64,000 nt of DNA from Acidiferrobacteraceae bacterium. Lineage in GTDB: Bacteria; Pseudomonadota; Gammaproteobacteria; Acidiferrobacterales; SZUA-150. Under the pieces are notes generated by a model that was not told the DNA's origin, did not search any database, and was given only the letters and a program-made list of their open reading frames with translations. Where the stretch lies: contig QIGL01000052.1 in assembly GCA_003228915.1 (NCBI GenBank), forward strand, positions 13,090-77,089, written 5' to 3'. This document shows positions 1,606 through 40,475 of this stretch, piece after piece. Within the stretch, counting starts at the first letter, position 1, and every line of letters starts with the position of its first letter. The position numbers and the translations under genes are program-made.

Positions 1606-2355
1606 TTAAACGTCAACGTACACCCACTTTTCCTGAATCCGCTTAAGCACCTGCTCCAGTGCTGAGGGCACGACCTCGACCCCGGGCAATAATGTTACCT
1701 CAACGCCTTTGTCTTCTTTTAAGCGACGAATGGTTTTATTGCACGCCAGGAAAGTTAAGTTATCGTAGCGTGTCATCAGGTCCTTTATCCGTTGACCTGC
1801 CGGTGTAATGTCGGCCCGTAATATATTTAACGCGGAAGAATGCACAATTATTTCAAGATTTAATGTTCTGTTGTTTTGCTCATATTTTAATAAGAGCTGC
1901 TCGATATCATCCAGTGTTGCAATTAACTGGGCAGGATTTTTTTCAATGCGAAGAATCGCATTGGTTGCTTTATCATTGACGCTGGCATGGACAAACTCTT
2001 GCAGAGAATAAAAGCTCTTCAAATTATCGGACGTTGCCGGCTGTATAATTGCAGGGCTCTGCAATAACCAACCTGCGGACAAACCCACAACAATGAGCAA
2101 ACTGGCAGCGATGGCCAGGAACGACGCAGGTAAATTATACGCCCGGTTTATTCGTTTTACTATTGAGGTTTTTGTATCGGTATTTCGGTACGCCGAGCGA
2201 TACAAGCCGCGGATTTCGCGCATTACATTAATATCATCACGTAATCTGGCATTATGCAGCATAGCCTGTTCTATGCGATCAGCATGTTCCTCGGTCATTT
2301 CGCCATCAATGTAGGCGCAAATTTCTTCCCTGGTATATTTAGATCCTGTAGTCAT
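1606..2355 (-). CDS. Membrane-spanning anti-sigma factor candidate with a C-terminal DsrE-like periplasmic domain
   Basis: Lies directly downstream of the ECF sigma gene. Has a short N-terminal cytoplasmic segment, one TM helix (LPASFLAIAASLLIVVGLSAGWLL), and a C-terminal ~110 aa that aligns by eye with the DsrE-like proteins at 3208 and 40035. Confidence 0.7.
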   Translation of the reverse strand: MTTGSKYTREEICAYIDGEMTEEHADRIEQAMLHNARLRDDINVMREIRGLYRSAYRNTDTKTSIVKRINRAYNLPASFLAIAASLLIVVGLSAGWLLQSPAIIQPATSDNLKSFYSLQEFVHASVNDKATNAILRIEKNPAQLIATLDDIEQLLLKYEQNNRTLNLEIIVHSSALNILRADITPAGQRIKDLMTRYDNLTFLACNKTIRRLKEDKGVEVTLLPGVEVVPSALEQVLKRIQEKWVYVDV

Positions 2356-2425: not shown

Positions 2426-2980
2426 CTATATAACCCGATGTAAAGTTACCGGTCGGGCTAATACCGCATGATTACAATAATCCCTTAATTGTTTTCTTAA
2501 CCCATCTCTTGCCCGTGCTAACCTGCTGGTGACGGTACCCAGTGGTATCCCCAGTGCTTCAGCTACCTGCGGATAGGTATAACCTGCCAAATCAACCAGT
2601 GATAATACTTCCCGTTGATTTCTTGGCAAACGGGCAACTGCTGCCCGCACACGCCTTACAATTTCTTCTTTCTCCTGACCGTCTTCCGGTGCAAGTTCTT
2701 CAAACTCGTCGAGAGTATCAAAATCGTCATGTTTTTTTCGACGACGCAAGTAGTCGCGCCAACAGTTGGTCAGGATATCTATAATCCAGCGTTCCATTGC
2801 GTAGTTTTCTCGCAGTTGCCCCAGGTTTTTGTAGGCACGAGTTAAGGCCTCCTGGGTCAAATCGTCGGCAAGTACTTTATCGCCACACCACGAGAACGCG
2901 ATACTGTGCAGTTTCCGGCGTCGTTCTCCGAGGTTTTGTCGATAAAGCCGTGTACGACAAAGCCAGTCTAAAGGATTCAT
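2426..2980 (-). CDS. ECF-type RNA polymerase sigma factor (sigma-70 family)
   Basis: 184 aa. Region 2 (DDLTQEALTRAYKNL) and region 4 HTH (YPQVAEALGIPLGTVTSRLARARDGL) are recognisable. GGAGG RBS upstream. Confidence 0.9.
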   Translation of the reverse strand: MNPLDWLCRTRLYRQNLGERRRKLHSIAFSWCGDKVLADDLTQEALTRAYKNLGQLRENYAMERWIIDILTNCWRDYLRRRKKHDDFDTLDEFEELAPEDGQEKEEIVRRVRAAVARLPRNQREVLSLVDLAGYTYPQVAEALGIPLGTVTSRLARARDGLRKQLRDYCNHAVLARPVTLHRVI

Positions 2981-3001
2981 ATTTTTCCTCCCAACCTACC
3001 C

Positions 3002-3028
3002 AGACGCACTAGCATCAGCAATCGTTCC
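3002..3028 (-). promoter_or_regulatory. Candidate ECF-type promoter for sigma autoregulation (GGAAC-N17-CGTCT)
   Basis: Minus strand reads GGAAC gattgctgatgctagtg CGTCT. It ends about 20 nt upstream of the sigma start codon. Confidence 0.5.
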
Positions 3029-3076
3029 AAATATTTTCATAGTATTTTACCCGGTCATTATTCTTGAAATAAACAT

Positions 3077-3103
3077 GGATCGATTGCGTGATCTGGTGCG
3101 TCA
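3077..3103 (+). promoter_or_regulatory. Candidate ECF-type promoter for the DsrE-like/porin unit (GGATC-N17-CGTCA)
   Basis: Plus strand reads GGATC gattgcgtgatctggtg CGTCA. Near-copy of the minus-strand element at 3002-3028, including the GATTGC start of the spacer. Confidence 0.5.
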
Positions 3104-3207
3104 TTGTACTCCAAGTCACGGGTATTACCTGCCGATAATTTTATAATAATTCTAAATTCGACGGGCGTTGACGATAAGTACTATTCAATCATAAACAGGA
3201 GGAAACA

Positions 3208-3654
3208 ATGTATCGATCACTAATGGGAACGTTTGTCACATTGATGATGGCAATTGCACTCAGCACGAGCCCGGCGCTGGCGACAGCGGGGATAAATAGT
3301 GCTGAGAAGAAAATCGTGCTGCAAATTAGCGATGGCAGCCCTAAAAAACAGACACTGGTTTTAAATGTCGCCAAAAATCTTATTAAACATTATGGCATTG
3401 ATAACGTGAAGGTTGAGATCGTGGCCTTTGGCCCCGGGTTACGCCTGTTATTCAAAGACAATGTTAATAGTATCCGTGTGCAAAGTCTTTCTACCTACGG
3501 CGTTCAGTTTTCTGCTTGTCAAAACACCACTCGTGCGATGACAAAAATCCTGGGGTATGAGCCAGAGCTTAATGAATCAGCGGTGCCAGTGAAAGCGGGT
3601 GTCGCGCGCATTATTGAGTTGACGGAAAAAGGCTACACACTGGTACGGCCATAA
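3208..3654 (+). CDS. Secreted DsrE/DsrF-like family protein (COG1416-like)
   Basis: AGGAGG RBS, signal peptide (MMAIALSTSPALATA). Motifs VEIVAFGPG, FSACQNT and GYTLVRP resemble the uncharacterised DsrE-like family. Confidence 0.75.
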   Translation: MYRSLMGTFVTLMMAIALSTSPALATAGINSAEKKIVLQISDGSPKKQTLVLNVAKNLIKHYGIDNVKVEIVAFGPGLRLLFKDNVNSIRVQSLSTYGVQFSACQNTTRAMTKILGYEPELNESAVPVKAGVARIIELTEKGYTLVRP

Positions 3655-3712
3655 ATTCGAACTAATTTTAATTATAAATAATTATAAAAATATTTTTCAG
3701 GAGAGACATTCA

Positions 3713-5179
3713 ATGTATGTAATAAAAAAAACAGCGTTAGCCCTGGCTTACGCGGTACTAATGGCAGGCGTGGTTGCGACTACGCAAGCGGCAAACTGGA
3801 CCATGCTGCAGGGGACTGAACCTGCAGGCACTGCGCCACGAATTAAGGTCTGGGGTTTCATTCAACCTGTCTACGAGAAAGACACCAGCAAAAAAAATAA
3901 ATATGTGGGCACACCTGGTAATAATTTCGAGATGGTTGCGCCCAAGCTTATTGGTCCGAATTTTGAAACACAAGAAGGCTTTAACATTCGACGGGCTCGT
4001 CTCGGTGCCAGAGGTGCCGGATTACCGCTGGACAGTAATGTAAATTATTTCTTTTTGGCAGAATTTGGTAATAACCTTTTAACGCACGACACTGGTGGAG
4101 TCGTTCGACTCACCGATGCCAGCATTACCCTAAACCATGTGCCAGGCGCGCGCGTACGCATGGGTGCGTTTAAGGTGCCTACCTTTGAAGAAGGTTACCA
4201 GGCCATTCATGTATTTGATTACATCAACTTCACTGAAGTGGCCCAACAAATGATGATGGAGCGCTTCCCGAATAAACAATGGACGCCTAACCGGAACAAT
4301 ACAACGGGTTTTGCCTATACAGACGGCGATAATGAAACGGCTTTCAACGGTTTTAATAAACCTGTCGGTGCTTTTCGTGACGTGGGTGTCCAGGTATTTG
4401 ATTCCTTCAAGTTTGGTAGCTGGGACACAACTTATGCCGCCATGTACGGCAATGGTAATGGTGTTAATTTAGGGGACAACGATAAAAATAAAGACGTCTA
4501 TCTTTACCTGTCAACCGAATGGATATTCGGCGGTAAAGGCCCGCGCCGCCAGGGCTGGAAGTTCTTTGTCTGGGGGCAGGATGGCAAGCGTACCTTGTAT
4601 AACCCGGATACCCCCAGGGCAGGTGGTCCTGGCACTGACAATGAGCCAGGTGGAAAACAGGAATACAGCCGTAAGCGTTATGGCATCGGTACTAAATTTA
4701 ACAACGGCCTGTTTCGTGTCACAACCGAATACTTGCAAGGTAAAGGCATGATTTTCCTGGGCCCGGATAACCCGACATTCACCATGACGGCACCGACTGG
4801 TGCCGGCGGTTGTGTTGCCGGCGACCCGAATAACGTATGCCCGTTATTAGCAGATGGCCGTAAAGGTGAATCGGCAGGTTATTATATCGACTTGGGCTGG
4901 TATATCCCGAGTACTGCGTGGGAGCTGGACGTGCGTTATGACTTCTATGATCGGTTGACCGATGCCGAGAAACTGGCAGGTCCTTGTGCTTTTAATTTTG
5001 AATTCAAGACCCTGACCGTTGGCACCAATTACCATTTAAAGAGCCGCATTACGGTAAACGCGGCAAAACGTGACTTTAAGTCCGTGGATTGTCCGGATGC
5101 GGGTCCTGGTGGCAATCCGAACAATAATCTGGAAGGCATCGATATGCGCTATAGCGTGCAGTTAACACATATTTTCTAA
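3713..5179 (+). CDS. Outer-membrane beta-barrel porin candidate
   Basis: Signal peptide ending TTQA/AN, alternating beta-strand-like sequence, C-terminal aromatic residue (LTHIF). Confidence 0.7.
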   Translation: MYVIKKTALALAYAVLMAGVVATTQAANWTMLQGTEPAGTAPRIKVWGFIQPVYEKDTSKKNKYVGTPGNNFEMVAPKLIGPNFETQEGFNIRRARLGARGAGLPLDSNVNYFFLAEFGNNLLTHDTGGVVRLTDASITLNHVPGARVRMGAFKVPTFEEGYQAIHVFDYINFTEVAQQMMMERFPNKQWTPNRNNTTGFAYTDGDNETAFNGFNKPVGAFRDVGVQVFDSFKFGSWDTTYAAMYGNGNGVNLGDNDKNKDVYLYLSTEWIFGGKGPRRQGWKFFVWGQDGKRTLYNPDTPRAGGPGTDNEPGGKQEYSRKRYGIGTKFNNGLFRVTTEYLQGKGMIFLGPDNPTFTMTAPTGAGGCVAGDPNNVCPLLADGRKGESAGYYIDLGWYIPSTAWELDVRYDFYDRLTDAEKLAGPCAFNFEFKTLTVGTNYHLKSRITVNAAKRDFKSVDCPDAGPGGNPNNNLEGIDMRYSVQLTHIF

Positions 5180-5308: not shown

Positions 5309-5353
5309 AATTAATCAGAGCTTTCCTGGGTTTGTCTGCCCGGGCCATCTAAA

Positions 5354-5380
5354 ACCCGGTCATCTGGCCGGGTTTTTTTT
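5354..5380 (+). terminator. Rho-independent terminator of the porin unit
   Basis: Stem acccgg/ccgggt with an 8-nt loop, followed by T8. Confidence 0.7.
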
Positions 5381-5654: not shown

Positions 5655-6968
5655 TTGATGCAAGTCTCAGTTGAAAACACAGGCGCAATTGGTCGCCGTA
5701 TGACGGTTTCTCTTTCTCCAGACGCCTTCGAAAAAGCGTTCACAGCGCGTCTCAAGCGCATGTCAAAGCAGGTGAAGCTGCCAGGCTTTCGCCCCGGCAA
5801 GGTGCCGTTGAAGGTTGTAGAGGCTCAATACGGCAGCCAGCTCATCCAGGAGGTCACTGGCGAGCTGATTCAGACCAGTTTCCAGGAGGCGATTGGCAAA
5901 GAAGGGCTGCGACCTGCAGGTGGACCAAAAATTGACCCTAAAAATATAGAGCGGGGCAAAGACCTGGAATACGTGGCCGAATTTGATATTTACCCGGAGG
6001 TCAACAAGCAGGATCTGAGCGGTGAAACACTGGAGATACCTGTCTGTGAGATTCAGGACGATGATATTAAAGAAACCCTCAAGACCATGCAAAAACAACG
6101 AATGTTATGGCAACCGGTAGAGCGGGAAGCCAAAAACGATGACCAGGTGACGATTGATTTTGATGGCAAAATAGACGGTAAGGCATTTGACGGTGGTCAG
6201 GCTAGCGCTGTCCCCCTGGTGCTGGGTTCAGGGGCAATGATCCCCGGATTTGAAGAAGGCCTGCTGAAAGTAAAGGCGGGCGAACAAAAAGATGTCACGC
6301 TTACCTTTCCCAAGGACTACCAGGCATCCCATTTGGCTGGCAAAAAAGCAGTATTCTCGGTCAAAGTGCAGCAAGTGGCAGAAGGCCAGTTGCCTGAGTT
6401 GTCAGAAGATTTTGCAAAACAGTTTGGTGTTGAAAGCGGTAGTTTGGACGAGTTACGCCAGGGGATTAAAGATAATCTAAACCGTGAGGCGACAGTTCGT
6501 ATCAGGAATATCACCCGTGACAGGGTGCTTGAGGCATTATTAGCCGCCAATGATTTTGAGTTGCCACAAGGGATGATTGTTGAAGAAATGCAGCAAATAC
6601 GAACCGGACGGGCGCGCCAAAGACAGGAACAAGGCATGCCTGAAGTGGCAGATGAAAATGAAGGTGAATTGAACGATGCGGCCAGGCGCCGTGTCACACT
6701 TGGCTTGATCATTGGTGAAATTATCAACCAGAAAAACTTAAAACCAGGATCTTCTAAAGTACGCCAGCGGGTTGAAGAGCTCGCCTCAGGGTACGAAAAT
6801 CCGCCCGCCCTGATTGCCTGGTATTACGAAAAACCGGAACGGTTGCGCGAGATAGAATCGCTGGTTCTGGAGGAAGCCGTGGTTGATGCGGTTTTGGCCA
6901 CTGCCACCGTCAAGAATAGCATCATAGCTTTTAAGGAACTGGTTGCAGTTAACGCCGGTAAAAGCTAG
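5655..6968 (+). CDS. tig: Trigger factor
   Basis: 437 aa. N-terminal ribosome-binding motif GFRPGKVP, central FKBP-like PPIase region. Position upstream of clpP-clpX-lon. Confidence 0.95.
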   Translation: MMQVSVENTGAIGRRMTVSLSPDAFEKAFTARLKRMSKQVKLPGFRPGKVPLKVVEAQYGSQLIQEVTGELIQTSFQEAIGKEGLRPAGGPKIDPKNIERGKDLEYVAEFDIYPEVNKQDLSGETLEIPVCEIQDDDIKETLKTMQKQRMLWQPVEREAKNDDQVTIDFDGKIDGKAFDGGQASAVPLVLGSGAMIPGFEEGLLKVKAGEQKDVTLTFPKDYQASHLAGKKAVFSVKVQQVAEGQLPELSEDFAKQFGVESGSLDELRQGIKDNLNREATVRIRNITRDRVLEALLAANDFELPQGMIVEEMQQIRTGRARQRQEQGMPEVADENEGELNDAARRRVTLGLIIGEIINQKNLKPGSSKVRQRVEELASGYENPPALIAWYYEKPERLREIESLVLEEAVVDAVLATATVKNSIIAFKELVAVNAGKS

Positions 6969-7000: not shown

Positions 7001-7648
7001 TTGAATCAACATATAAATAATGGTGCAGGCATGATGACCGATGATTTAGTGAAAGGACCACAAGCCCTTGGATTAGTGCCAATGGTGATTGAGACAACCG
7101 GCAAAGGCGAGCGGGCTTACGATATTTATTCTCGCATGCTCAAGGAGCGGGTTATTTTCCTGGTCGGGCCGGTCGAGGACTACATGTCTAATTTGATCGT
7201 GGCCCAGTTGTTGTTTCTTGAGTCCGAGAACCCGGATAAGGACATACATATCTATATCAACTCACCCGGCGGGGCCGTGACCGCGGGTTTGGCGATTTAT
7301 GACACTATGCAGTTCATAAAACCCGATGTCAGCACGGTTTGTATCGGCCAGGCCGCCAGTATGGGTGCGCTGTTGCTGGCCGGTGGCGCCAAAGGCAAGC
7401 GTTTCGCACTACCACACGCGCGTATGATGATTCACCAGCCCCTGGGGGGATTTCAGGGTCAGGCCACGGATGTTGATATTCATGCCCGGGAGATTCTGCG
7501 GGTTCGTGAGCGCCTGAACGAGATTCTGGCGGCCCATACAGAACAAAAACTTGAAAAAATTCAACAAGATACAGAACGTGATAACTTCCTGGAAGGGTCT
7601 GAGGCGGTGGAATTTGGCCTGATTGATAAAGTTATTGAAAAGCGTTAG
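7001..7648 (+). CDS. clpP: ATP-dependent Clp protease proteolytic subunit
   Basis: Motifs [14 protein letters not shown] and MIHQP. The true start is probably the ATG at 7031 (MMTDD...). Confidence 0.95.
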
Positions 7649-7797: not shown

Positions 7798-9096
7798 TTG
7801 ATGGCAGATGATCGAAATGACGGTGGCGATAATAAAAGCGAAAAGCTTTTATATTGCTCTTTTTGTGGCAAGAGTCAGCATGAAGTTCGGAAGCTGATCG
7901 CAGGCCCGTCTGTTTTTGTGTGTGATGAGTGCGTAGAACTCTGTAATGACATTATCCGCGAAGAAGTCGAAGAGGATGAAGAGTCTGCAGTTGGCAAGAG
8001 CCGCTTTCCCAAACCCCAGGAAATTTATCAAATTCTTGATGAGTACGTGATTGGCCAGTCAGACGCCAAAAAGGTGTTGTCGGTCGCTGTTTATAATCAC
8101 TACAAGCGTGTTGAGCATCAGGAGTCTGCTGCCGGTGATGTCGAGCTTTCCAAAAGTAATATCCTGCTTGTGGGTCCTACCGGTTCCGGCAAAACACTAT
8201 TGGCAGAAACGCTAGCGCGGTTGCTCAATGTCCCCTTTACCATTGCCGATGCCACGACACTGACCGAAGCCGGTTACGTGGGCGAAGATGTCGAAAATAT
8301 TATTCAGAAGCTGCTGCAAAAATGCGATTACGATGTCGATAAAGCACAGCGTGGCATTGTCTATATTGATGAGATCGATAAAATCTCGCGCAAATCAGAC
8401 AATCCTTCTATCACCCGGGATGTTTCGGGCGAGGGTGTCCAGCAGGCATTGCTGAAATTGATTGAAGGCACCATTGCCTCGGTACCGCCACAAGGTGGAC
8501 GCAAACACCCGCAACAGGAATTTCTGCAAGTAGACACGGGTGGAATTTTATTTATTTGCGGCGGCGCCTTTGCCGGCCTTGAGAAGGTAATCCAGGAGCG
8601 CTCCGAAAAAAGCAGTATTGGTTTTGGTGCCGATATTAAAACCAAATCTGAGAAAAAAAATATTGGTGAAATATTGCGTGGCGTCGAGCCAGAAGATCTA
8701 ATTAGATATGGCCTGATACCGGAATTTGTTGGCCGCTTGCCGGTGATGGCAGTACTGGAAGAATTAAGCGAAGAATCATTGGTTAGAATTCTTACTGAAC
8801 CAAAAAATGCCCTGGCAAAACAGTTCCAGAAACTGTTTCGCCTGGAAGGGGTTGAGCTTGAAATCCGTGAAGACGCGTTACGCGCGGTTTCCAAGCGTGC
8901 CATGGACAGGAAAACCGGTGCCCGTGGTTTGCGATCCATTGTTGAGCATGCCCTGCTGGATATCATGTTTGATTTACCCTCTACGGACAATGTCGAAAAA
9001 GTGGTTATTGAGGCCAATGTGATTACTGACGGCGCCAGCCCGCTACTGATCTATTCTGACAGCGACAAAAAAGAGAAACGCGCTTCCTCAAACTGA
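7798..9096 (+). CDS. clpX: ATP-dependent Clp protease ATP-binding subunit ClpX
   Basis: N-terminal zinc finger [26 protein letters not shown], Walker [12 protein letters not shown]-type loop SIGFGA. Confidence 0.97.
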
Positions 9097-9438: not shown

Positions 9439-11892
9439 ATGAGTAAAAATATGACAACCGATGAAAATGATGAGAATCAGCTAACCACAGAAGAGATGTC
9501 AGACGCGATACCTGGAAATTTACCGGTGTTACCGCTTCGGGATGTAGTCGTTTTCCCGCACATGGTCATTCCTTTATTTGTGGGCCGTAAAAAATCTATC
9601 GTGGCGCTTGAAAAGGCCATGGAAGAAGGTAAAAAAATCATGTTGGCGGCACAGAAAAGTGCTTCTGATGACGACCCTGACATCGAACAGATTCACCGAA
9701 TCGGCACGGTAGCCGGAATTCTGCAATTGCTTAAGTTGCCAGACGGCACAGTCAAGGTACTGGTTGAGGGCGATCAGCGAGCAGTGATCACCGACTATAC
9801 CGAAAAAGAAACCTGCTTCATTGCTGACATCGACATGCTTGATGATGCAATGACGAAACCCGAGGAACACGAAGCCCTGATGCGTTCGGTGTTATCGGAG
9901 TTTGATCAGTACGTAAAACTTAACATGAAAATCCCGCCAGAAATTCTGACTTCAGTCAATAATATTGAAGAGCCGGGCAGGCTGGCCGATACCATTGCTG
10001 CACATTTAAGCCTCAAGATAGACGAGAAGCAGGAAATTCTCGAGATGTGTGATGTCCACGAGCGTCTCGAACAAATTTTATCTGTCATGGATTCAGAAAT
10101 AGATTTGCTGCAGGTTGAGAAACGAATCCGTGGTCGCGTCAAAAGACAAATGGAAAAAAGCCAGCGCGAATACTATTTGAATGAACAAATGAAGGCCATC
10201 CAAAAAGAACTTGGCGACATGGATGAAGCGCCAAACGAAATTGAAGAGCTGAAAAAGAAAATTGAAACATCGGGTATGACCAAGGAGGCCAGGGAGAAGG
10301 TCGATGCTGAATTAAATAAAATGAAAATGATGTCACCCATGTCAGCAGAAGCGACCGTGGTGCGTAATTATATTGACACAATTATTAATGTCCCATGGAA
10401 AAAACGTTCAAAAATTACCAAAGACATCCAAAAGGCCGAAGTTGTACTTGAAGAAGACCATTATGGCCTGGAAAAAGTCAAAGAACGAATCCTTGAGTAC
10501 CTTGCTGTTCAGCAACGGGTGAAAAAATTAAAGGGACCCATTCTTTGCCTGGTAGGACCTCCTGGCGTCGGTAAAACTTCACTTGGCCGTTCTATTGCCC
10601 GGGCAACCAACCGAAAATTTATCAGGATGGCCCTGGGCGGGGTCAGGGACGAGGCCGAGATTCGTGGCCACCGTCGGACCTATATCGGCTCAATGCCGGG
10701 CAAGATTATCCAGAACCTGAGCAAGGTCAAGGTTCGTAACCCGCTGCTCATGCTTGATGAAGTAGATAAAATGTCTACGGATTTTCGGGGCGATCCTTCT
10801 TCAGCACTTTTAGAGGTGCTGGATCCTGAACAAAACCATACCTTTGGCGATCACTACCTGGAAGTGGATTACGATTTGTCAGATGTCATGTTTGTTGCTA
10901 CTGCCAATACATTGAATATCCCGGGACCATTGCTGGATCGCATGGAAGTAATTCGATTATCCGGTTATACGGAAGATGAGAAAGTAAACATCGCCAAGCG
11001 TTATCTCGTTTCCAAGCAAATGAAAAATAACGGGCTGACAACGTCTGAAATTGAAATTGCTGACGAGGTGCTGCAGGATATTGTCCGTTATTACACCCGC
11101 GAAGCCGGGGTCCGAAATCTTGAACGTGAGATATCAAAAATATTCAGAAAAGTGGCAAAAGAATTGCTAATTGATAAAGACAAAAAAATCAGCGTCACCT
11201 CCGATAATCTTGAGACTTACCTGGGCGTAAAACAATTCCGTTACGGGATGGTTGAAGAGAACAACCAGGTTGGCCAGGTAACGGGCCTGGCCTGGACAGA
11301 AGTAGGCGGTGAGTTGCTGACTGTAGAAAGCGCCATCATGCCTGGTAAAGGCAAGCTGACCATCACTGGCAAACTCGGTGATGTCATGCAGGAGTCCATC
11401 CAGGCGGCAATGAGCGTCGTCCGCAGCCGTGTTGATGTATTGGGCATAGACCCTGATTTTTATCAAAAATACGATATCCATATTCATGTGCCTGAGGGGG
11501 CTACCCCAAAAGATGGTCCAAGCGCTGGTGTCGCGATGTGTACTGCCATGGTGTCATCTTTGACCAGCATACCGGTGCGGGCAGATGTTGCCATGACGGG
11601 CGAGATTACGCTGCGCGGTGAGGTGTTGCCTATTGGCGGATTGAAAGAAAAATTGCTGGCTGCGCACCGGGGTGGAACCAAAATAGTGCTTATTCCTGAA
11701 GAAAATCGTAAGGACCTGGCAGAGATTCCGGAGAATGTGCTGGCAGCGCTTGATATCAGGCCGGTCAAATGGGTGGACCAGGTGCTGGAAACCGCCCTTG
11801 AATACATGCCTGAATCGAATTCACCTAAAACGTCACCATCGTCAGCAGGTGACAAAAAACAGAAAAACGAAAATTCTGTCATAAAGCATTAA
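9439..11892 (+). CDS. lon: Lon protease
   Basis: 817 aa. LON N-domain, Walker [10 protein letters not shown], catalytic-Ser motif PKDGPSAG. Confidence 0.97.
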
Positions 11893-27971: not shown

Positions 27972-28322
27972 GGAAGTAATTTCTTTGCTCGCACCTGTGT
28001 CATTAAAAAGCCCTGGGCTCATGATGGACGATATTTGCGAAAACATATAACAACAAAGGACATGGAAAAGCGTTAATAACTACATGATTTAACAGGGCAC
28101 GTGACGCTAAACAGTCGTTTATCGGGCAATTTTGTTGATTTATGCTACCATTGGTTTCAAGAAATCCCGGTCATTAATATATGTGGTATTTCTGTCGTAT
28201 CTGGGGAGGTATCGACAGAGCAGGGCGGCCTCGGATACATTAAATACTGTAAGGGGCAATTAGTTCAGTTATAACAAGTAACATATTGCTGGCGTAATTC
28301 TGGGTTCATAGTGGTTGTAGTT

Positions 28323-31300
28323 ATGGTGAAACAGAGTATTAGTAACTACAGGCCATTCCTCTCTTCCCTGATAGTTTCATTTTTCCTTCTAATTCTTGCC
28401 AGCTGTGGCGGTGGCGGCGGTTCTGGGGGCGGCGGTTCTGGTGGTGGTGATACAACTCCGCCCACTGTGTCATCGACAGTACCGACAATTAATGCAACTG
28501 GTGCTGGCCTAAGCAGCGCATTCGCTGCAACATTTTCCGAGGCCCTGAACCCGGCCACAATTTCAACCGCAAGCTTTTCGGTTGTTGTCACCAGTGGTGG
28601 GGCGCCGGTATCTGGCACGGTGTCATATAATGGTGTCACTGCGACATTTACACCGGACAGTGTTTTGCCAGGGAATACACAATTCACCGCAACCTTAACA
28701 GGCGGCGCCGGCAATATTACTGACCTGGCAGGTAATCCTCTGGCCGCAGACTATGTCTGGAGTTTTACCACCGGCATAGCTCCGGATGGTACGCCGCCCA
28801 CTGTGTCATCGACCGTGCCGACAGCGAATGCCACGGGCGTTTCTTTGAATAGCGCAGTCACTGCTACATTTTCCGAGGCCCTGAACCCGGCCACAATTTC
28901 AACCGCAACCTTTTCGGTTGTTGTCACCAGTGGTGGGGCACCGGTATCAGGCGCAGTGACCTACAATGGCGTCACTGCAACGTTTACACCAGGCAGTGCT
29001 TTGGCCGGGGATACGCAATTCACTGCAACCTTGACAGGCGGTACCGGTAATATTGCTGATTTGGCTGACAACGTGTTGGTCGCGGATTATGTCTGGAGTT
29101 TTACCACCGGCCCGGCGCCGGACAGTACGTCGCCAACAGTATCATCGACCGTGCCGACAGCGAATGCCACGGGCGTTTCTTTGAACAGTGCAGTCGCTGC
29201 AACATTTTCCGAGGCCTTGAACCCGGCAACCATTTCAACCGCAACCTTTTCGGTTGTTGTCACCAGTGGTGGGGCACCGGTATCAGGCGCAGTGACCTAC
29301 AATGGCGTGACTGCAACGTTTACCCCCAGCAGTGCCTTACCGGCGGACACACAACTCACTGCAACCTTAACCGGCGGTGCCGGCAATATTGCTGACCTGG
29401 CAGGCAATCCCCTGGCTGCGAGCTATACCTGGAGTTTTACTACCGGCCCGGCGCCGGACAGTACGTCGCCGACAGTATCATCGACAGTGCCGACAACGAA
29501 TGCCACGGGCGTTTCTTTAAACAGCGCAATCTCTGCAACATTTTCCGAGGCCCTGGATCCGGCAACCATTTCAACGGCAAGCTTTTCGGTTGTCGTGACC
29601 AGTGGTGGGGCACCGGTATCTGGCACGGTGACCTACAATGGCGTCACGGCAACGTTTACCCCCAGCAGCGCTTTACCGGGGAGTACACAATTTACTGCAA
29701 CCTTAACAGGCACTGCCGGCAATATTGCTGATTTGGCAGGTAATCCGTTGGCTACGGACTATGTCTGGAGTTTTACTGCAGGCGCGGTTCCGGACAGTAC
29801 GTCGCCGACAGTATCATCGACCGTGCCGACAACGAATGCCACGGGCGTTTCTTTAAACAGCGCAATCTCTGCAACATTTTCCGAGGCCCTGAACCCGGCC
29901 ACAATTTCAACGGCAACCTTTTCTGTTGTCGTGACCAGTGGTGGAGCACCGGTACCAGGCACAGTAACCTATAATGGTGTTACTGCAACGTTTACCCCCA
30001 GCAGCGCTTTACCGGGGAGTACACAATTTACTGCAACCTTAACAGGCACTGCCGGCAATATTACTGACCTGGCAGGCAACCCTTTGACAACAAACTATGT
30101 CTGGAGTTTTACTACCGTCCCGCCACCGGACATCACGCCCCCCGCAGTATCATCGACTGTGCCGACAACGAATGCCACAGGCGTTTCTTTGAACAGCACA
30201 GTCACTGCAACATTTTCCGAGGCCCTGGATCCGGCAACCATTTCAACCGCAAGCTTTACGGTTGTTGTCACCAGTGGCGGGGCAACGGTGTCTGGTACGG
30301 TGTCATATAATGGCGTCACTGCGACGTTTACACCGGACAGTGTTTTGCCAGGGAATACACAATTCACCGCAACCTTAGCTGGTGGTGTCGGCAATATTAC
30401 TGACCTGGCAGGCAACCCTCTCGCTGCGAGCTACGTCTGGAGTTTTACCACGCAGCCAGATTTAATTCTCCCTGATGTCATAAGCCCGCTCAGCCCGGTC
30501 AGCAACGCAACCAATGTAGCGACCAATACGAACGTCAGCGCCACATTCTCGGAACCGATTACGCCTGGATCAGTGGTTTTCCTGCTCAATGGTCCTGGTG
30601 GTGCCGTTTCTACTTCACCACCCGCGCTTACTGGCAACAATGATTTCGTAACAATCAATCCTGCTGCATCGCTTGAAAATAATACCACTTATGTTGCCAC
30701 CATCAGTGCTGCTAGAGATATTGCTGGCAATAATCTGGCGATGCCTTTTAGCTGGAGTTTTACCACAGTACCTGCACCGGATACCGCGCCACCCACTGTG
30801 TCATCGCATACGCCAATTGTTGGTGCAACCGGTGTGTCGATTAATTCGGCAATTAGTATTATTTTTTCGGAGTCAATGAATCTGTTGACGATTAACGAAA
30901 CTAACATCACGATTGATGGTGGTGTCAGCGCAAGCTCGGTAACCTATAGCGGGGTGACTGCTGTTTTTACGCCGTCTGTTAATTTGGCCAATAACACCAC
31001 TTACACGGTTACCGTAACAACGGGTGCAACAGATGTAGCTGGAAATCCTATAGCTGCAAACTATACATTCAGTTTTACAACTGCAGCAGCACCAGACACA
31101 ACACCACCGACCGTGTCATCGACAGTGCCGGCAACGAATGCCACAGGTATATCTTTAAACAGCGCAGTAACCGCGACATTTTCCGAGGCCTTGAATCCAG
31201 CAACAATTATTTTATCAACCTTTTCTGTTGTTGAGACCATTGGTGGAGCACCGGTATTAGGCGCAGTGACCTATAATGGCGTCACTGCAACGTTTACCCC

Positions 31301-33653
31301 AGACAGTGATTTAGCTGGAGATACGCAATTTACCGCGACCTTAACAGGCGGCGGTGGCAATATTGCTGACCTGGCAGGGAATGTGCTGGTAGGGGAGTAT
31401 GCATGGAGTTTTACCACCGGCCCTATTCCGGATACGACACCACCCACAGTTGAGTCGACTGTGCCTGCCGACACCGCCACGGTCATAGCGACCAACACCG
31501 CTATTACCGCGTTATTTTCTGAAGCTATTGATCCGGCAACCATCAACACCAGCAATTTTTCGGTATATGACAATACTAATTCATTATCGGTGAGTGGCAC
31601 GGTTACTTACAATGGTTTAACAGCGACCTTTACACCCAATACAGTTTTGGCCAATGACGCCTTACACACTGTGGCCTTATCCGGGGTAACAGACACCGCT
31701 GGTAATTCTTTGCCATTAACAAACTGGACGTTTACCACGGCAGCAGCGCCAGACATTACCAATCCTTCGGTAAATCTTCCTACTGTTCCCGCAGATACAG
31801 CGACAAATGTAGATATAACAACCGCAATCTCGGCCACATTTGATGAGCCCATGGATGCGGCAACATTAAGCACGGCAACCTTTACAGTTAATGACGACAC
31901 CAATATGTTAGCAGTTAGCGGCACTGTTACTTACGACGGTACCACGGCCACTTTTCAGCCGGATGCCGTCCTGGCTTTTTCTGCTGATATTACAGCCACT
32001 ATCAATGGCGCAACTGATCTTGCTGGCAATCCTTTACCACTTACCAACTGGACATTTACCATCAGCGCCGCACCCGATACCACTGGACCACAAATTACCA
32101 GCACCAGCCCGGTAAATTCGTCGACAGATATTAGTTTGCGGCCAACAATCACAGTCAAATTTTCCGAGCTTATTGATTGCGCGACCTTACTGGATTCTAG
32201 CTTGAGTTTAACGGGTGGGGCAGTGGTGACTTTTACGGCAAGTTGTGGCGCTGATACTGCCACATTTATCCCCACTTCGGACCTCACCGTGAATACAACT
32301 TATACGGCAACTTTAAATGGCAGCATTACGGATATTGCCGCTAATGTACTGGTAGCTGGTTCGATACCAAACCCGTGGACGTTTACGACAGCACCAGAAT
32401 TGTGGACCGTCCAGTTTGGCAGCGATTCTCATGACCAGGTCCGTGGCGTAGTGACCGATACTGCCGGCAATGTTTATATTACAGGATCAACACTTGGCAA
32501 CATGGATGACCAGGTAAATGCCGGGGGCAATGACATTTTCCTGACCAAGTATTCGCCGGCTGGGGAACGTCTCTGGACCAGGTTTGCGGGCACCAATAGA
32601 ACAGATGTGGCCAATGCGCTTGCGGTTGATAGCGCGGATAATATTTATATTGCCGGCTATTCGAGAGGAGATCTTAATGGTGAAACAAATAACAATTTCA
32701 CAAAAGATGTTGCGGTTATTAAATATGATGCCACTGGTGCACGACTCTGGACCCGTCTGCTCGGCACCGGTTCTGATGATTTTGCATCAGCTATTACCAT
32801 AGATGGATCAGACAATATCTATGTGACCGGCACCACGTTTGGTGATTTTGATGGTGCGAGCTCTATGAGAAATGGTAGTGAATTCTTTTTGTTAAAACTT
32901 GCTAGCAGTGGTGCTGAGCAATGGCGGACACAGTTAGGGAGCAGCAATGACATTGTGGCGCGTGGCATCACCACAATTGGTACCAATGTTTATGTCGTGG
33001 GCCACACTAATGGCGGTTTGGCCGAACCGGTAGCCAGGACCAACTCTGGGGCAACTGATATATTTTTAGCCCGTTTCTCGACTGCTATTGGCACGCTAGA
33101 TTTATCACAGCTTTACGGGAATTCAGCTGATAATTTGGGTCACGGGATTGTTGCCTTTGGTACAGATTTGTATATTACCGGCAACACCAAGGGCGGACTA
33201 AAGGGCCTCGGTGGAGTTAACGTGCCTAGTATTGGTCTCATTGATGCATTTTTGATGCAAACTGACACGGCTGGTGTTGTCCAATGGACCAGGATCATTG
33301 GCACATCAGCAGATGATTTAGGGAGGGGTGTTACTGTTGATTCCAGCGGCGGTATTTATATCACCGGTTATACCGTGGGCAGCTTTACTGGCGCGGCCAA
33401 TGCTGGCAGTAATGATTTGTTTGTCACCAAGTATGATACTTCCGGCGCAACTGCATGGGCTACTCCGGTCGTCCGACAACTCGGCAGCGCCGCAGACGAT
33501 ACCGCCCGCGCTATTACCACCTATTCGACTGCGGGCGTGACCGATGTATTTGTTGTCGGCGAGACCCTGGGCGCACTGGATGGTAATGTGTCATTCGGCT
33601 TGAGTGATTTTTTTGCGGTGAAATATGATGGTGCTACGGGAACCAAGAATTAA
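28323..33653 (+). CDS. Giant surface lipoprotein: 12 SbsA/Big_5-like Ig modules plus C-terminal SBBP beta-propeller repeats
   Basis: Lipobox LILASCGGGGGSGG. 12 modules each start D-x-T/S-P-P-T-V-S-S-T-V-P and contain ATFSEAL(N/D)PATIS. The C-terminal third has D-x-x-GN-(I/V)-Y-I-T-G ... ND-(I/L)-F-L-x-K-Y repeats. The ORF is open from 28311 (GTG). Confidence 0.85.
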   Translation: MVKQSISNYRPFLSSLIVSFFLLILASCGGGGGSGGGGSGGGDTTPPTVSSTVPTINATGAGLSSAFAATFSEALNPATISTASFSVVVTSGGAPVSGTVSYNGVTATFTPDSVLPGNTQFTATLTGGAGNITDLAGNPLAADYVWSFTTGIAPDGTPPTVSSTVPTANATGVSLNSAVTATFSEALNPATISTATFSVVVTSGGAPVSGAVTYNGVTATFTPGSALAGDTQFTATLTGGTGNIADLADNVLVADYVWSFTTGPAPDSTSPTVSSTVPTANATGVSLNSAVAATFSEALNPATISTATFSVVVTSGGAPVSGAVTYNGVTATFTPSSALPADTQLTATLTGGAGNIADLAGNPLAASYTWSFTTGPAPDSTSPTVSSTVPTTNATGVSLNSAISATFSEALDPATISTASFSVVVTSGGAPVSGTVTYNGVTATFTPSSALPGSTQFTATLTGTAGNIADLAGNPLATDYVWSFTAGAVPDSTSPTVSSTVPTTNATGVSLNSAISATFSEALNPATISTATFSVVVTSGGAPVPGTVTYNGVTATFTPSSALPGSTQFTATLTGTAGNITDLAGNPLTTNYVWSFTTVPPPDITPPAVSSTVPTTNATGVSLNSTVTATFSEALDPATISTASFTVVVTSGGATVSGTVSYNGVTATFTPDSVLPGNTQFTATLAGGVGNITDLAGNPLAASYVWSFTTQPDLILPDVISPLSPVSNATNVATNTNVSATFSEPITPGSVVFLLNGPGGAVSTSPPALTGNNDFVTINPAASLENNTTYVATISAARDIAGNNLAMPFSWSFTTVPAPDTAPPTVSSHTPIVGATGVSINSAISIIFSESMNLLTINETNITIDGGVSASSVTYSGVTAVFTPSVNLANNTTYTVTVTTGATDVAGNPIAANYTFSFTTAAAPDTTPPTVSSTVPATNATGISLNSAVTATFSEALNPATIILSTFSVVETIGGAPVLGAVTYNGVTATFTPDSDLAGDTQFTATLTGGGGNIADLAGNVLVGEYAWSFTTGPIPDTTPPTVESTVPADTATVIATNTAITALFSEAIDPATINTSNFSVYDNTNSLSVSGTVTYNGLTATFTPNTVLANDALHTVALSGVTDTAGNSLPLTNWTFTTAAAPDITNPSVNLPTVPADTATNVDITTAISATFDEPMDAATLSTATFTVNDDTNMLAVSGTVTYDGTTATFQPDAVLAFSADITATINGATDLAGNPLPLTNWTFTISAAPDTTGPQITSTSPVNSSTDISLRPTITVKFSELIDCATLLDSSLSLTGGAVVTFTASCGADTATFIPTSDLTVNTTYTATLNGSITDIAANVLVAGSIPNPWTFTTAPELWTVQFGSDSHDQVRGVVTDTAGNVYITGSTLGNMDDQVNAGGNDIFLTKYSPAGERLWTRFAGTNRTDVANALAVDSADNIYIAGYSRGDLNGETNNNFTKDVAVIKYDATGARLWTRLLGTGSDDFASAITIDGSDNIYVTGTTFGDFDGASSMRNGSEFFLLKLASSGAEQWRTQLGSSNDIVARGITTIGTNVYVVGHTNGGLAEPVARTNSGATDIFLARFSTAIGTLDLSQLYGNSADNLGHGIVAFGTDLYITGNTKGGLKGLGGVNVPSIGLIDAFLMQTDTAGVVQWTRIIGTSADDLGRGVTVDSSGGIYITGYTVGSFTGAANAGSNDLFVTKYDTSGATAWATPVVRQLGSAADDTARAITTYSTAGVTDVFVVGETLGALDGNVSFGLSDFFAVKYDGATGTKN
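28449..32395 (+). repeat. Intragenic tandem repeat array (~336-bp period, about 12 units; units 2-6 nearly identical at DNA level)
   Basis: The same peptide blocks recur every ~112 aa. Antisense shadow ORFs in the track recur at a 336-nt offset (29423..29626 and 29759..29962). Confidence 0.85.
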
Positions 33654-39402: not shown

Positions 39403-39417
<15 letters not shown>

Positions 39418-39662
39418 TTCATAAAGAAAAGACCCCTTCATGGGGTCTTTTTTTATGAATTATGTTTTTGTGGGAGGAGAACCCCGGGTTCGACATTGCG
39501 CAGGGATGCGCAGGTGTCGCGTAGGCCAGGGATGACCTGAGCGAAGCGAGGAAATGCTGAATGAAACCCGAAGGGGTTCTACAGTGGGCCGAGAGCGGCG
39601 ACCCTTGGGGACGCCATTCATAAAGAAAAGACCCCTTCATGGGGTCTTTTTTTATGAATTAT
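39403..39662. repeat. 61-bp perfect direct repeat (39403..39463 and 39602..39662) flanking a 138-bp insert
   Basis: Both copies read cccttggggacgccattcataaagaaaagaccccttcatggggtctttttttatgaattat. That is the last 15 nt of tRNA-Glu plus its terminator. The insert has inverted termini agaacccc (39478..39485) and ggggttct (39573..39580). Confidence 0.85.
39430..39454 (+). terminator. Rho-independent terminator after tRNA-Glu (an identical second copy lies at 39629..39653)
   Basis: Stem agacccc, loop TTCAT, stem ggggtct, followed by a T-run. Confidence 0.8.
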
Positions 39663-39774
39663 ATTTCGTTTTCTGCGGGGGAATACAAACCCTGAGTTGA
39701 TGACATATATCACAAAAAATGTTGGGTGTTAAAACGACGGTAACGATCGTAATCACTGTATTTCACGGCAATCG

Positions 39775-40034: not shown

Positions 40035-40475
40035 ATGAGTAAATTAATAAGAAATTCAAGCCTGATTGTACTAATGTCGTTATTTGTTTTTGGGAATTTA
40101 AGCGCGTTTGCTGGTGCGAAATTGCCGCATAAAGTAGTAATCCAGGTTAGTACTGATGATCCAAGAACCCAAAAAATAGCATTGAATAATGCCGTCAACC
40201 TGCAGAAGCTTTATGGTATTGATAATATTAAGATTGAAATTGTTGCCTATGGTCCAGGACTTGGGTTGTTGACAACAAAGAGCAAGCAGGCCGATAGAGT
40301 GAAAAGCCTGGCAGTGCAGGAGATAACCTTTAGCGCATGCCATAATACTATGAAAGGTGTTAAACGCAAAACAGGTAAAATGCCCGTCCTGCTTGAAGGT
40401 GTCGGAATGGTCACAGCAGGTGTTGCCCGTATTATAGAATTGCAAGAACAAGGGTACGCCTACGTCCGACCATAA
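40035..40475 (+). CDS. Secreted DsrE/DsrF-like family protein (paralog of 3208..3654)
   Basis: GGAGG RBS, signal peptide (FVFGNLSAFA). IEIVAYGPG, FSACHNT and GYAYVRP align along the full length with the 3208 protein. Confidence 0.75.
   Translation: MSKLIRNSSLIVLMSLFVFGNLSAFAGAKLPHKVVIQVSTDDPRTQKIALNNAVNLQKLYGIDNIKIEIVAYGPGLGLLTTKSKQADRVKSLAVQEITFSACHNTMKGVKRKTGKMPVLLEGVGMVTAGVARIIELQEQGYAYVRP

Follow-up and report, generated by a model that had tools for sequence, protein, structure and literature searches.

Two back-to-back ECF-type promoters lie at 3002-3103, in a divergent intergenic region, and comparison of related loci makes it very probable that they are independent of each other and that both are read by the sigma factor encoded at 2426-2980, so that P_sigma would autoregulate and P_dsrE would drive the genes for a DsrE-like protein and a porin. 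The feature is a variant within a known class of promoters and regulatory modules, and dozens of sulfur-oxidising bacteria have kept the pair. Positions are those of the window, by which we mean the whole 64-kb stretch of DNA that was analysed; the features concerned are:

1606..2355, minus strand: anti-sigma factor, 249 aa, single-pass (weak zf-HC2 match, E 0.0017; hydropathy; DsrE-like HMM match)
2426..2980, minus strand: ECF sigma factor, 184 aa (Pfam Sigma70_r2, E 1e-11; Sigma70_r4_2, E 2e-15)
3002..3028, minus strand: P_sigma, predicted ECF-type promoter (-35 GGAAC at 3028..3024, -10 CGTCT at 3006..3002, 17-nt spacer)
3077..3103, plus strand: P_dsrE, predicted ECF-type promoter (-35 GGATC at 3077..3081, -10 CGTCA at 3099..3103, 17-nt spacer)
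3208..3654, plus strand: secreted stand-alone DsrE-like protein, 148 aa (signal peptide; cysteine in F-S-A-C-Q-N-T), first gene of the putative target operon
3713..5179, plus strand: porin-like outer-membrane protein, 488 aa (signal peptide, C-terminal phenylalanine)
5351..5376, plus strand: intrinsic terminator of the DsrE-like/porin unit (11-bp stem with 6 G-C pairs, then a T run)

When the sequence was re-read, the minus strand at 3028..3002 gave GGAAC-GATTGCTGATGCTAGTG-CGTCT and the plus strand at 3077..3103 gave GGATC-GATTGCGTGATCTGGTG-CGTCA, just as the preliminary description had it, and its account of the spacers, each 17 nt long with GATTGC at the start and GTG at the end, was likewise accurate. 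The extended -35 element is GGAACGATTG in P_sigma and GGATCGATTG in P_dsrE. The two 27-nt sites are identical at 19 of 27 positions, and a repeat search reports them as an inverted repeat of 27 nt, 74% complementary, with arms 46 nt apart. Both are housed in the 227 nt between the sigma gene and the DsrE-like gene, and each has the position and orientation of an ECF-type promoter, as do their counterparts in orthologous loci: the CGTCT of P_sigma ends at 3002 and the sigma ATG occupies 2980..2978, leaving 21 nt between them (a distance earlier put at about 20 nt), while the CGTCA of P_dsrE ends at 3103, with a gap of 104 nt before the DsrE-like ATG at 3208. Transcription from P_sigma is predicted to start at about 2996-2993, with a leader of some 13-16 nt carrying the ribosome-binding site GGGAGG, and from P_dsrE at about 3109-3112, with a leader of about 100 nt.

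An Rfam search of the intergenic region returned no match, and a sigma-70 promoter scan of its relevant strands found nothing convincing. A sigma-70-like -10 hexamer is present on the sigma-coding strand, TACAAT at 3103-3108 (minus), and is conserved in four loci, reading TATAAT in L004, L005 and L001 (orthologous loci are designated by L numbers). It lacks an acceptable -35 element and overlaps the -10 element and start region of P_dsrE (in the opposite reading, CGTCATTATA); it could serve basal sigma transcription, or could be a piece of the P_dsrE initial transcribed region.

Within the window the motif is confined to this pair. The pattern GGAWCGATTGC-N8-GTGCGTC, which came from the data themselves, occurs with up to three mismatches only at the two sites in 64 kb, against an expectation of 0.04. 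For the generic pattern GGAWC-N17-CGTC the two sites are again the sole matches, with 0.56 expected, and this pattern appears at least twice in 6 of 100 shuffles of the window; the generic motif count, taken alone, is not significant. Significance comes instead from the correct orientation of both sites within one 227-nt divergent intergenic region and from their conservation across species. Relaxed scans with 0 or 1 mismatch gave nothing beyond chance-level matches, which bears out the earlier statement that the window holds no further copy. The same description spoke of a compact regulon; this stands for the 64-kb window only, where a second DsrE-like paralogue has no motif. That gene (40035-40475, plus strand) encodes a stand-alone protein of 146 aa with a signal peptide and the sequence FSACHNT (HMM E 1.9e-48); GGAWC/GGAAT-N17-CGTC is absent from the 370 nt upstream of it, and the gene therefore seems not to be part of the predicted regulon.

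The identity of the sigma factor could be settled from its domains: Pfam finds both Sigma70_r2 and Sigma70_r4_2, in agreement with the original assignment to the ECF class, and the protein matches the solved sigma-E chains 1OR7 and 6JBQ. Among the NCBIfam models only the generic sigma70-ECF one reaches its cut-off. The region-4 recognition helix reads GTVTSRLARAR and includes Thr151. Orthologues of this sigma form a tight family (44-97% identity, with the next match at 36%), and no second ECF sigma was found in the 64-kb window.

The anti-sigma factor matches zf-HC2 below the gathering score (E 0.0017) and has one hydrophobic segment, at residues 74-104. Residues 124-247 match a profile built from the stand-alone DsrE-like proteins (E 7e-24), and in each anti-sigma that we recovered for the family the same profile finds the last ~125 residues. 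The homology is visible by profile only; when the anti-sigma and the DsrE-like protein were compared directly by BLASTP, nothing was returned (E 15). A single cysteine within F-x-A-C-x-N-T is present in 98% of 51 stand-alone DsrE-like proteins and in 100% of 63 anti-sigma domains; in the window anti-sigma it lies within F-L-A-C-N-K-T. By profile homology the predicted periplasmic domain of the anti-sigma is DsrE-like; it is paralogous to the secreted target and bears an invariant cysteine. The architecture is common, with 476 representative clusters at E<=1e-10, and among the 150 matches listed nearly all extend end to end; an RpoE6-type anti-sigma tested for the DsrE-like domain gave no match. 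Our literature search found no relevant report linking DsrE with anti-sigma factors, nor any report on ECF sigma factors in Thiobacillus denitrificans. Converging on the end of the anti-sigma gene are four tRNA genes at 1007-1483 on the plus strand (Pro-TGG, Arg-TCT, His-GTG, Lys-CTT), with terminators at 1496-1543.

The genes facing the other way had been described as DsrE-like and porin genes, and this holds: the product of the first is DsrE-like and carries a signal peptide, and that of the second is a porin-like outer-membrane protein. Both the target protein and the anti-sigma domain belong with the DsrE/DsrF-like proteins, by a match to the family profile and by the conserved cysteine. 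The Pfam DsrE model (PF02635) scores the window protein at E 0.0032 and 18.1 bits, below its cut-off of 22.7, but matches 13 of 16 members of the DsrE-like family (best E 5e-13), and the family profile in turn matches PDB 1L1S (MTH1491) at E 1.4e-24. The sulfur-relay proteins DsrE/TusD, MTH1491 (1L1S) and ST0148 (2PD2) share this fold family and a single conserved cysteine with the target and the anti-sigma domain; classical DsrE and TusD are cytoplasmic, whereas here one copy is predicted to be exported and the other to be fused to the anti-sigma on its periplasmic side. The porin-like label is based on a weak NCBIfam match to the porin ExtI and on faint Porin_O_P/Porin_4 marks on orthologues. 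The porin-like gene begins 58 nt past the DsrE-like gene with no terminator predicted between them, the order DsrE-like then porin is kept in many loci, and the two genes are probably co-transcribed.

For comparison across genomes we fetched 15 metagenomic and 80 genome loci, the sigma being 40-58% identical in 54 of the latter; the tests of motif and gene arrangement used 65 non-redundant orthologous loci, mostly from sulfur oxidisers. The organisms named for these 54 loci come for the most part from known sulfur-oxidising groups: Acidiferrobacterales, Thiohalobacter, Thiogranum, Thioalkalivibrio versutus, Thiobacillus denitrificans, Sedimenticola and Sulfurisoma. The sigma/anti-sigma pair is kept throughout the compared loci, and the pair together with a nearby DsrE-like gene is found in 12/12 metagenomic loci and in most genome loci with a sigma at 40-58%. 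In 37 of the 65 non-redundant loci the DsrE-like gene lies divergently upstream, often with a porin next to it.

The motif GGA[AT][TC]-N17-C[GA]TC has 88 matches in the 52 kb that precede the sigma genes (400 nt before each) and 44 in 900 kb of other sequence from these loci, at 1.68 versus 0.049 per kb, a 34-fold enrichment upstream of sigma genes; the regions upstream of 26 outgroup ECF genes gave three matches. Positions left free in the search pattern are also conserved (6-8 as A, A and A/T; 27 as T), giving the family consensus GGAATAAA-N14-CGTCT. At a finer scale, a six-locus alignment of the subclade to which the window belongs leaves TGGATCG and CGTC, in the reading of the P_dsrE strand, as the only invariant intergenic blocks, besides scattered single bases and the start codons, and the P_sigma site is kept in L096, L004, L005 and L001 at 20-23 nt from the ATG. 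The motifs are thus conserved beyond the surrounding intergenic sequence, both by the 34-fold enrichment and by the invariant TGGATCG and CGTC, and in the correct orientation, in agreement with the earlier reading of them as ECF promoters. In the closest relative, L096, whose sigma is 97% identical, the DsrE-side promoter is GGAAC-GAATACGTTAACTGGCG-CGTCA; the GATTGC and GTG of the spacer are not kept there and are therefore unconstrained, and the conserved core is GGAWCGAW and CGTC.

The distribution of the motif follows the arrangement of the genes. A motif pointing outward, away from the sigma gene, is present in 34 of the 37 loci with a divergent DsrE-like gene versus 10 of the 28 without one (Fisher p = 2e-6). 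In five loci the sole DsrE-like gene is part of the sigma operon (L042, L045, L051, L061, L068): three of these retain the sigma-side motif alone, L061 has a degenerate sigma-side site only, and L068 has one outward match, without the GGAATA signature. The DsrE-like gene of L059 stands 2 kb from the sigma and yet is preceded, at 76 nt, by a GGAATA-N-CGTCT of its own. Across loci the two -35 elements are 2 to 206 nt apart (median 26.5, 38 loci) while the -35/-10 spacing is steady at 16-17 nt, and this combination of a variable gap with fixed internal spacing rules out a single palindromic operator.

Some of the loci without a divergent DsrE-like gene have an outward motif facing other genes: in L046 it faces a SorA-like molybdoenzyme of the sulfite-oxidase family (2573-3802, minus strand), in L048 SoxY-SoxZ (2928-3756, minus strand) and in L057 a YeeE/YedE sulfur transporter (2568-3683, minus strand). 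These targets tie the whole sigma family to periplasmic sulfur chemistry. In two loci, L054 (3927/3930) and L056 (3140/3143), the divergent -35 elements nearly abut, as TTTATTCC-nn-GGAATAAA; with a gap of 2 nt the two RNA polymerase footprints must overlap, and the promoters there might be mutually exclusive.

A further departure concerns autoregulation. The DsrE-side promoter is kept and the sigma-side ECF motif is not recognisable in L007 (4888-5000), L013 (1814-2154) and L098 (653-819), and perhaps L008 is also without a clear sigma-side motif. Autoregulation is accordingly not universal, and the intergenic sequences suggest that some of the subclade has lost or altered it; this has a parallel in Starkeya SigE, which is not autoregulated (PMC6527743).

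Reading the sites as ECF-type promoters, as the preliminary description did, agrees with what is known of ECF26, the closest characterised ECF group, whose mapped promoters the motif matches (PMC6527743, PMC6180224). Kappler and co-workers give an ECF26 consensus of -35 GGAAT and -10 CGTC for the sorT, sorA and rpoE4 promoters, which were mapped by 5'-RACE and, in heterologous reporters, are activated 16- to 260-fold by their own sigma, S. meliloti RpoE4 for sorT and rpoE4 and Starkeya SigE for sorA (PMC6527743); the rpoE4 promoter is listed as ...GGAATAAGCGAGGCAGCTCGCTCGTCTCTACGCCG, along with further GGAATA...CGTCT promoters, by Lang et al. (PMC6180224). The family consensus obtained here is identical to the published one (GGAAT/CGTC) for S. 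meliloti RpoE4 and Starkeya SigE, both of which respond to sulfite. The two window sites fit the ECF26 motif exactly in their -10 CGTC and 17-nt spacing, whereas at -35 they have GGAAC or GGATC and then GAT, in place of GGAATA.

The likeness extends to the organization of the ECF26 systems for sulfite oxidation (S. meliloti RpoE4-EcfR4 with sorT-sorU-azu2, and RpoE1; Starkeya novella SigE with sorAB). There, as is predicted for the window, the sigma is co-transcribed with a single-pass anti-sigma, one promoter precedes the sigma operon and another a neighbouring target gene of sulfur metabolism, each regulon is small, and the promoters are bipartite with a 16-17 nt spacer, that of rpoE4 being GGAATAAG-N14-CGTCT (PMC6180224) and P_sigma having the same architecture. 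The region-4 helix GTVMSRL is found both in ECF26 and in the wider family described here. The differences are that the window has GGAWCGAT rather than GGAATA at -35 and Thr rather than Met in the recognition helix; that its target is a secreted DsrE-like protein with a porin and not a sulfite dehydrogenase; that the hosts of its family are gamma- and betaproteobacterial sulfur oxidisers; and that the periplasmic domain of its anti-sigma is DsrE-like (E 7e-24), whereas those of S. meliloti EcfR1, 3, 4 and 6 are RsiW-like (PMC6180224), a feature that the window anti-sigma does not share. RpoE1 and RpoE4 respond to sulfite-generating compounds (PMC3511301), and the mechanism by which ECF26 anti-sigma factors sense sulfite is described as unknown (PMC6527743).

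The best-characterised sequence relative that we found is RpoE6, the window sigma being 37% identical to the S. medicae RpoE6 (ECF26) orthologue, which is indirect evidence for a place in ECF26. Evidence of the same kind is that, among plasmid-borne matches to the sigma, Sinorhizobium and Rhizobium records are the most numerous; two of three inspected contexts are RpoE6-type with a divergent S8 peptidase gene. The S. meliloti/S. medicae RpoE6 locus has the geometry of the window: sigma and anti-sigma run divergently from the main target gene, towards which a GGAATAG...CCGTT promoter points (PMC6180224). Its target, an S8 serine protease, and its signal are different, however, and the rpoE6 gene is reportedly under an RpoD-like rather than an ECF promoter. 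A more distant comparison is with E. coli sigma-E (RpoE), whose autoregulated promoter is GGAACTT-N16-TCAAA. It follows the general ECF scheme, with a -35 resembling GGAAC, a short -10 rich in C and T, control of its own gene and an anti-sigma in the membrane (RseA), but its -10 is TCAAA rather than CGTC, and it belongs to another ECF group with another anti-sigma and a large regulon.

The subclade comprises the window and L096, L004, L005, L001, L008 and L013, and has GGAWCGAT at -35 in place of GGAATA; in the window, L096, L004, L005 and L001 the variant is present on both promoters. Residue 151 of the sigma, in the region-4 helix (GTV-T-SR), is Thr in all six scored subclade loci and Met in 57/57 loci of the GGAATA type, and the RpoE6 orthologue also has Met at this position, which we take to align with R171 of E. 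coli sigma-E at the start of the recognition helix. Two further loci fit a putative link between residue 151 and the -35 element: L098 has Arg at this position and GGAGC-N17-CGTCT, and L007 has Thr and GGATG-N17-CGTCT. Since one clade amounts to one evolutionary event, the co-variation of Met and Thr is suggestive only. The paired change in the -35 sequence and a single recognition-helix residue would represent a natural specificity switch, and it could guide the design of orthogonal ECF parts.

What remains to be weighed is whether these sites are promoters at all, and which sigma uses them. The window -35 elements, GGAAC and GGATC, differ from the validated GGAAT, and this speaks against the reading we favour. 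That two loosely ECF-like strings might resemble each other by chance draws on the shuffles already mentioned, 6 of 100 of which had at least two copies of GGAWC-N17-CGTC; we consider it a negligible prospect, given that both copies sit correctly oriented in one divergent intergenic region and are conserved across 65 loci with 34-fold enrichment, and the chance reading is already refuted by the comparative data. It is equally hard to credit that the arms, inverted and 74% complementary over 27 nt as they are, serve as the two half-sites of an operator for a dimeric transcription factor. The distance between the arms is not fixed, being anywhere between 2 and 206 nt in 38 loci, with the bipartite spacing inside each arm constant at 16-17 nt; one arm is missing where the DsrE-like gene is in the operon; the arms fit a validated ECF promoter consensus; and neither a constant arm-to-arm distance nor a co-conserved gene for a DNA-binding regulator was seen. 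Mobile-element and palindromic-operator readings were both rejected, as the arm spacing varies and the context is orthologous.

If the sites are taken as genuine ECF-type promoters, they could still be served, wholly or partly, by a paralogous ECF sigma encoded elsewhere in the genome, with the adjacent sigma not the main driver. Cross-activation among the ECF26 paralogues RpoE1, RpoE4 and RpoE6 of S. meliloti is documented (PMC3511301, PMC6180224, PMC6527743), and our inspection, in which no second ECF sigma appeared, covered 64 kb of the genome. We nevertheless regard such an arrangement as unlikely, since the motif tracks this sigma family across 65 loci and, in the subclade, the -35 changes on both promoters along with the recognition helix of the sigma encoded in cis. 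Very unlikely, in our judgement, is that only P_dsrE functions, with a weak or vestigial sigma-side copy and a sigma operon under some other promoter and not autoregulated. The loci L007, L013 and L098, the behaviour of Starkeya SigE (PMC6527743) and the TACAAT/TATAAT hexamer conserved in four loci on the sigma-coding strand would all suit that view; against it, the window, L096, L004, L005 and L001 all have an intact sigma-side site at a constant 20-23 nt from the ATG, most of the wider family has kept this site, and the TACAAT has no acceptable -35. Two promoters read by the adjacent sigma thus remain the preferred reading.

Motifs, conservation, orientation, the link to gene arrangement and the domain homologies were obtained directly from sequence and comparison, and we infer sigma dependence, the start sites, co-transcription of the porin gene and the nature of the signal. 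In the mechanism that we propose, the single-pass anti-sigma would keep the sigma at the membrane in uninduced cells. A periplasmic sulfur species would modify or bind the sensor cysteine and the sigma would be released; the signal, we infer, is a reactive sulfur species sensed by the DsrE-like domain of the anti-sigma through its invariant cysteine. Released sigma would then fire both promoters together, giving positive feedback and output at once: P_sigma would autoregulate the sigma/anti-sigma operon through its short leader, and P_dsrE would drive the secreted DsrE-like protein and, probably on the same transcript, the porin. The cell would thereby make more of the sensor, its soluble paralogue and the porin.

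The arrangement is a textbook ECF one and mainly confirms that such regulons are readable from sequence. A broader proposal, which we advance tentatively and which may well turn out otherwise, is that it represents an undescribed sulfur-sensing ECF module of sulfur-oxidising Proteobacteria, with a DsrE-like anti-sigma sensor bearing an invariant cysteine and an output of secreted paralogue and anion porin, the paralogue perhaps feeding back on the sensor, either as a competitor for the sulfur species or as a binding partner of the sensor domain; the subclade would have re-tuned its -35 from GGAATA to GGAWCGAT, tied to the Met-to-Thr change at the start of the recognition helix. The cysteine-bearing, DsrE-like periplasmic sensor of this large sister family (476 clusters) is a concrete candidate, open to experimental test, for the way in which chemolithotrophs such as Thiobacillus denitrificans and Thioalkalivibrio sense sulfur.

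Several other elements of the window were recorded. Downstream of the DsrE-like/porin unit, plus-strand ORFs at 5655-6968, 7001-7648 and 7798-9096 resemble trigger factor, ClpP and ClpX, with motifs judged by eye, and an 817-aa ORF follows at 9439-11892 (plus strand); in the related loci L001 and L005 it is clpA-clpS that adjoins the sigma module instead. An ORF of 1780 aa at 28311-33653 (plus strand) has an N-terminus resembling a lipoprotein signal, followed by a glycine/serine-rich linker. Finally, a 65-nt direct repeat (39403-39467 and 39602-39666, 98% identical, with ~135 nt of other sequence between the copies) duplicates the 3' end of a tRNA-Glu gene together with its terminator hairpin, and may be what an integration event at this gene left behind.
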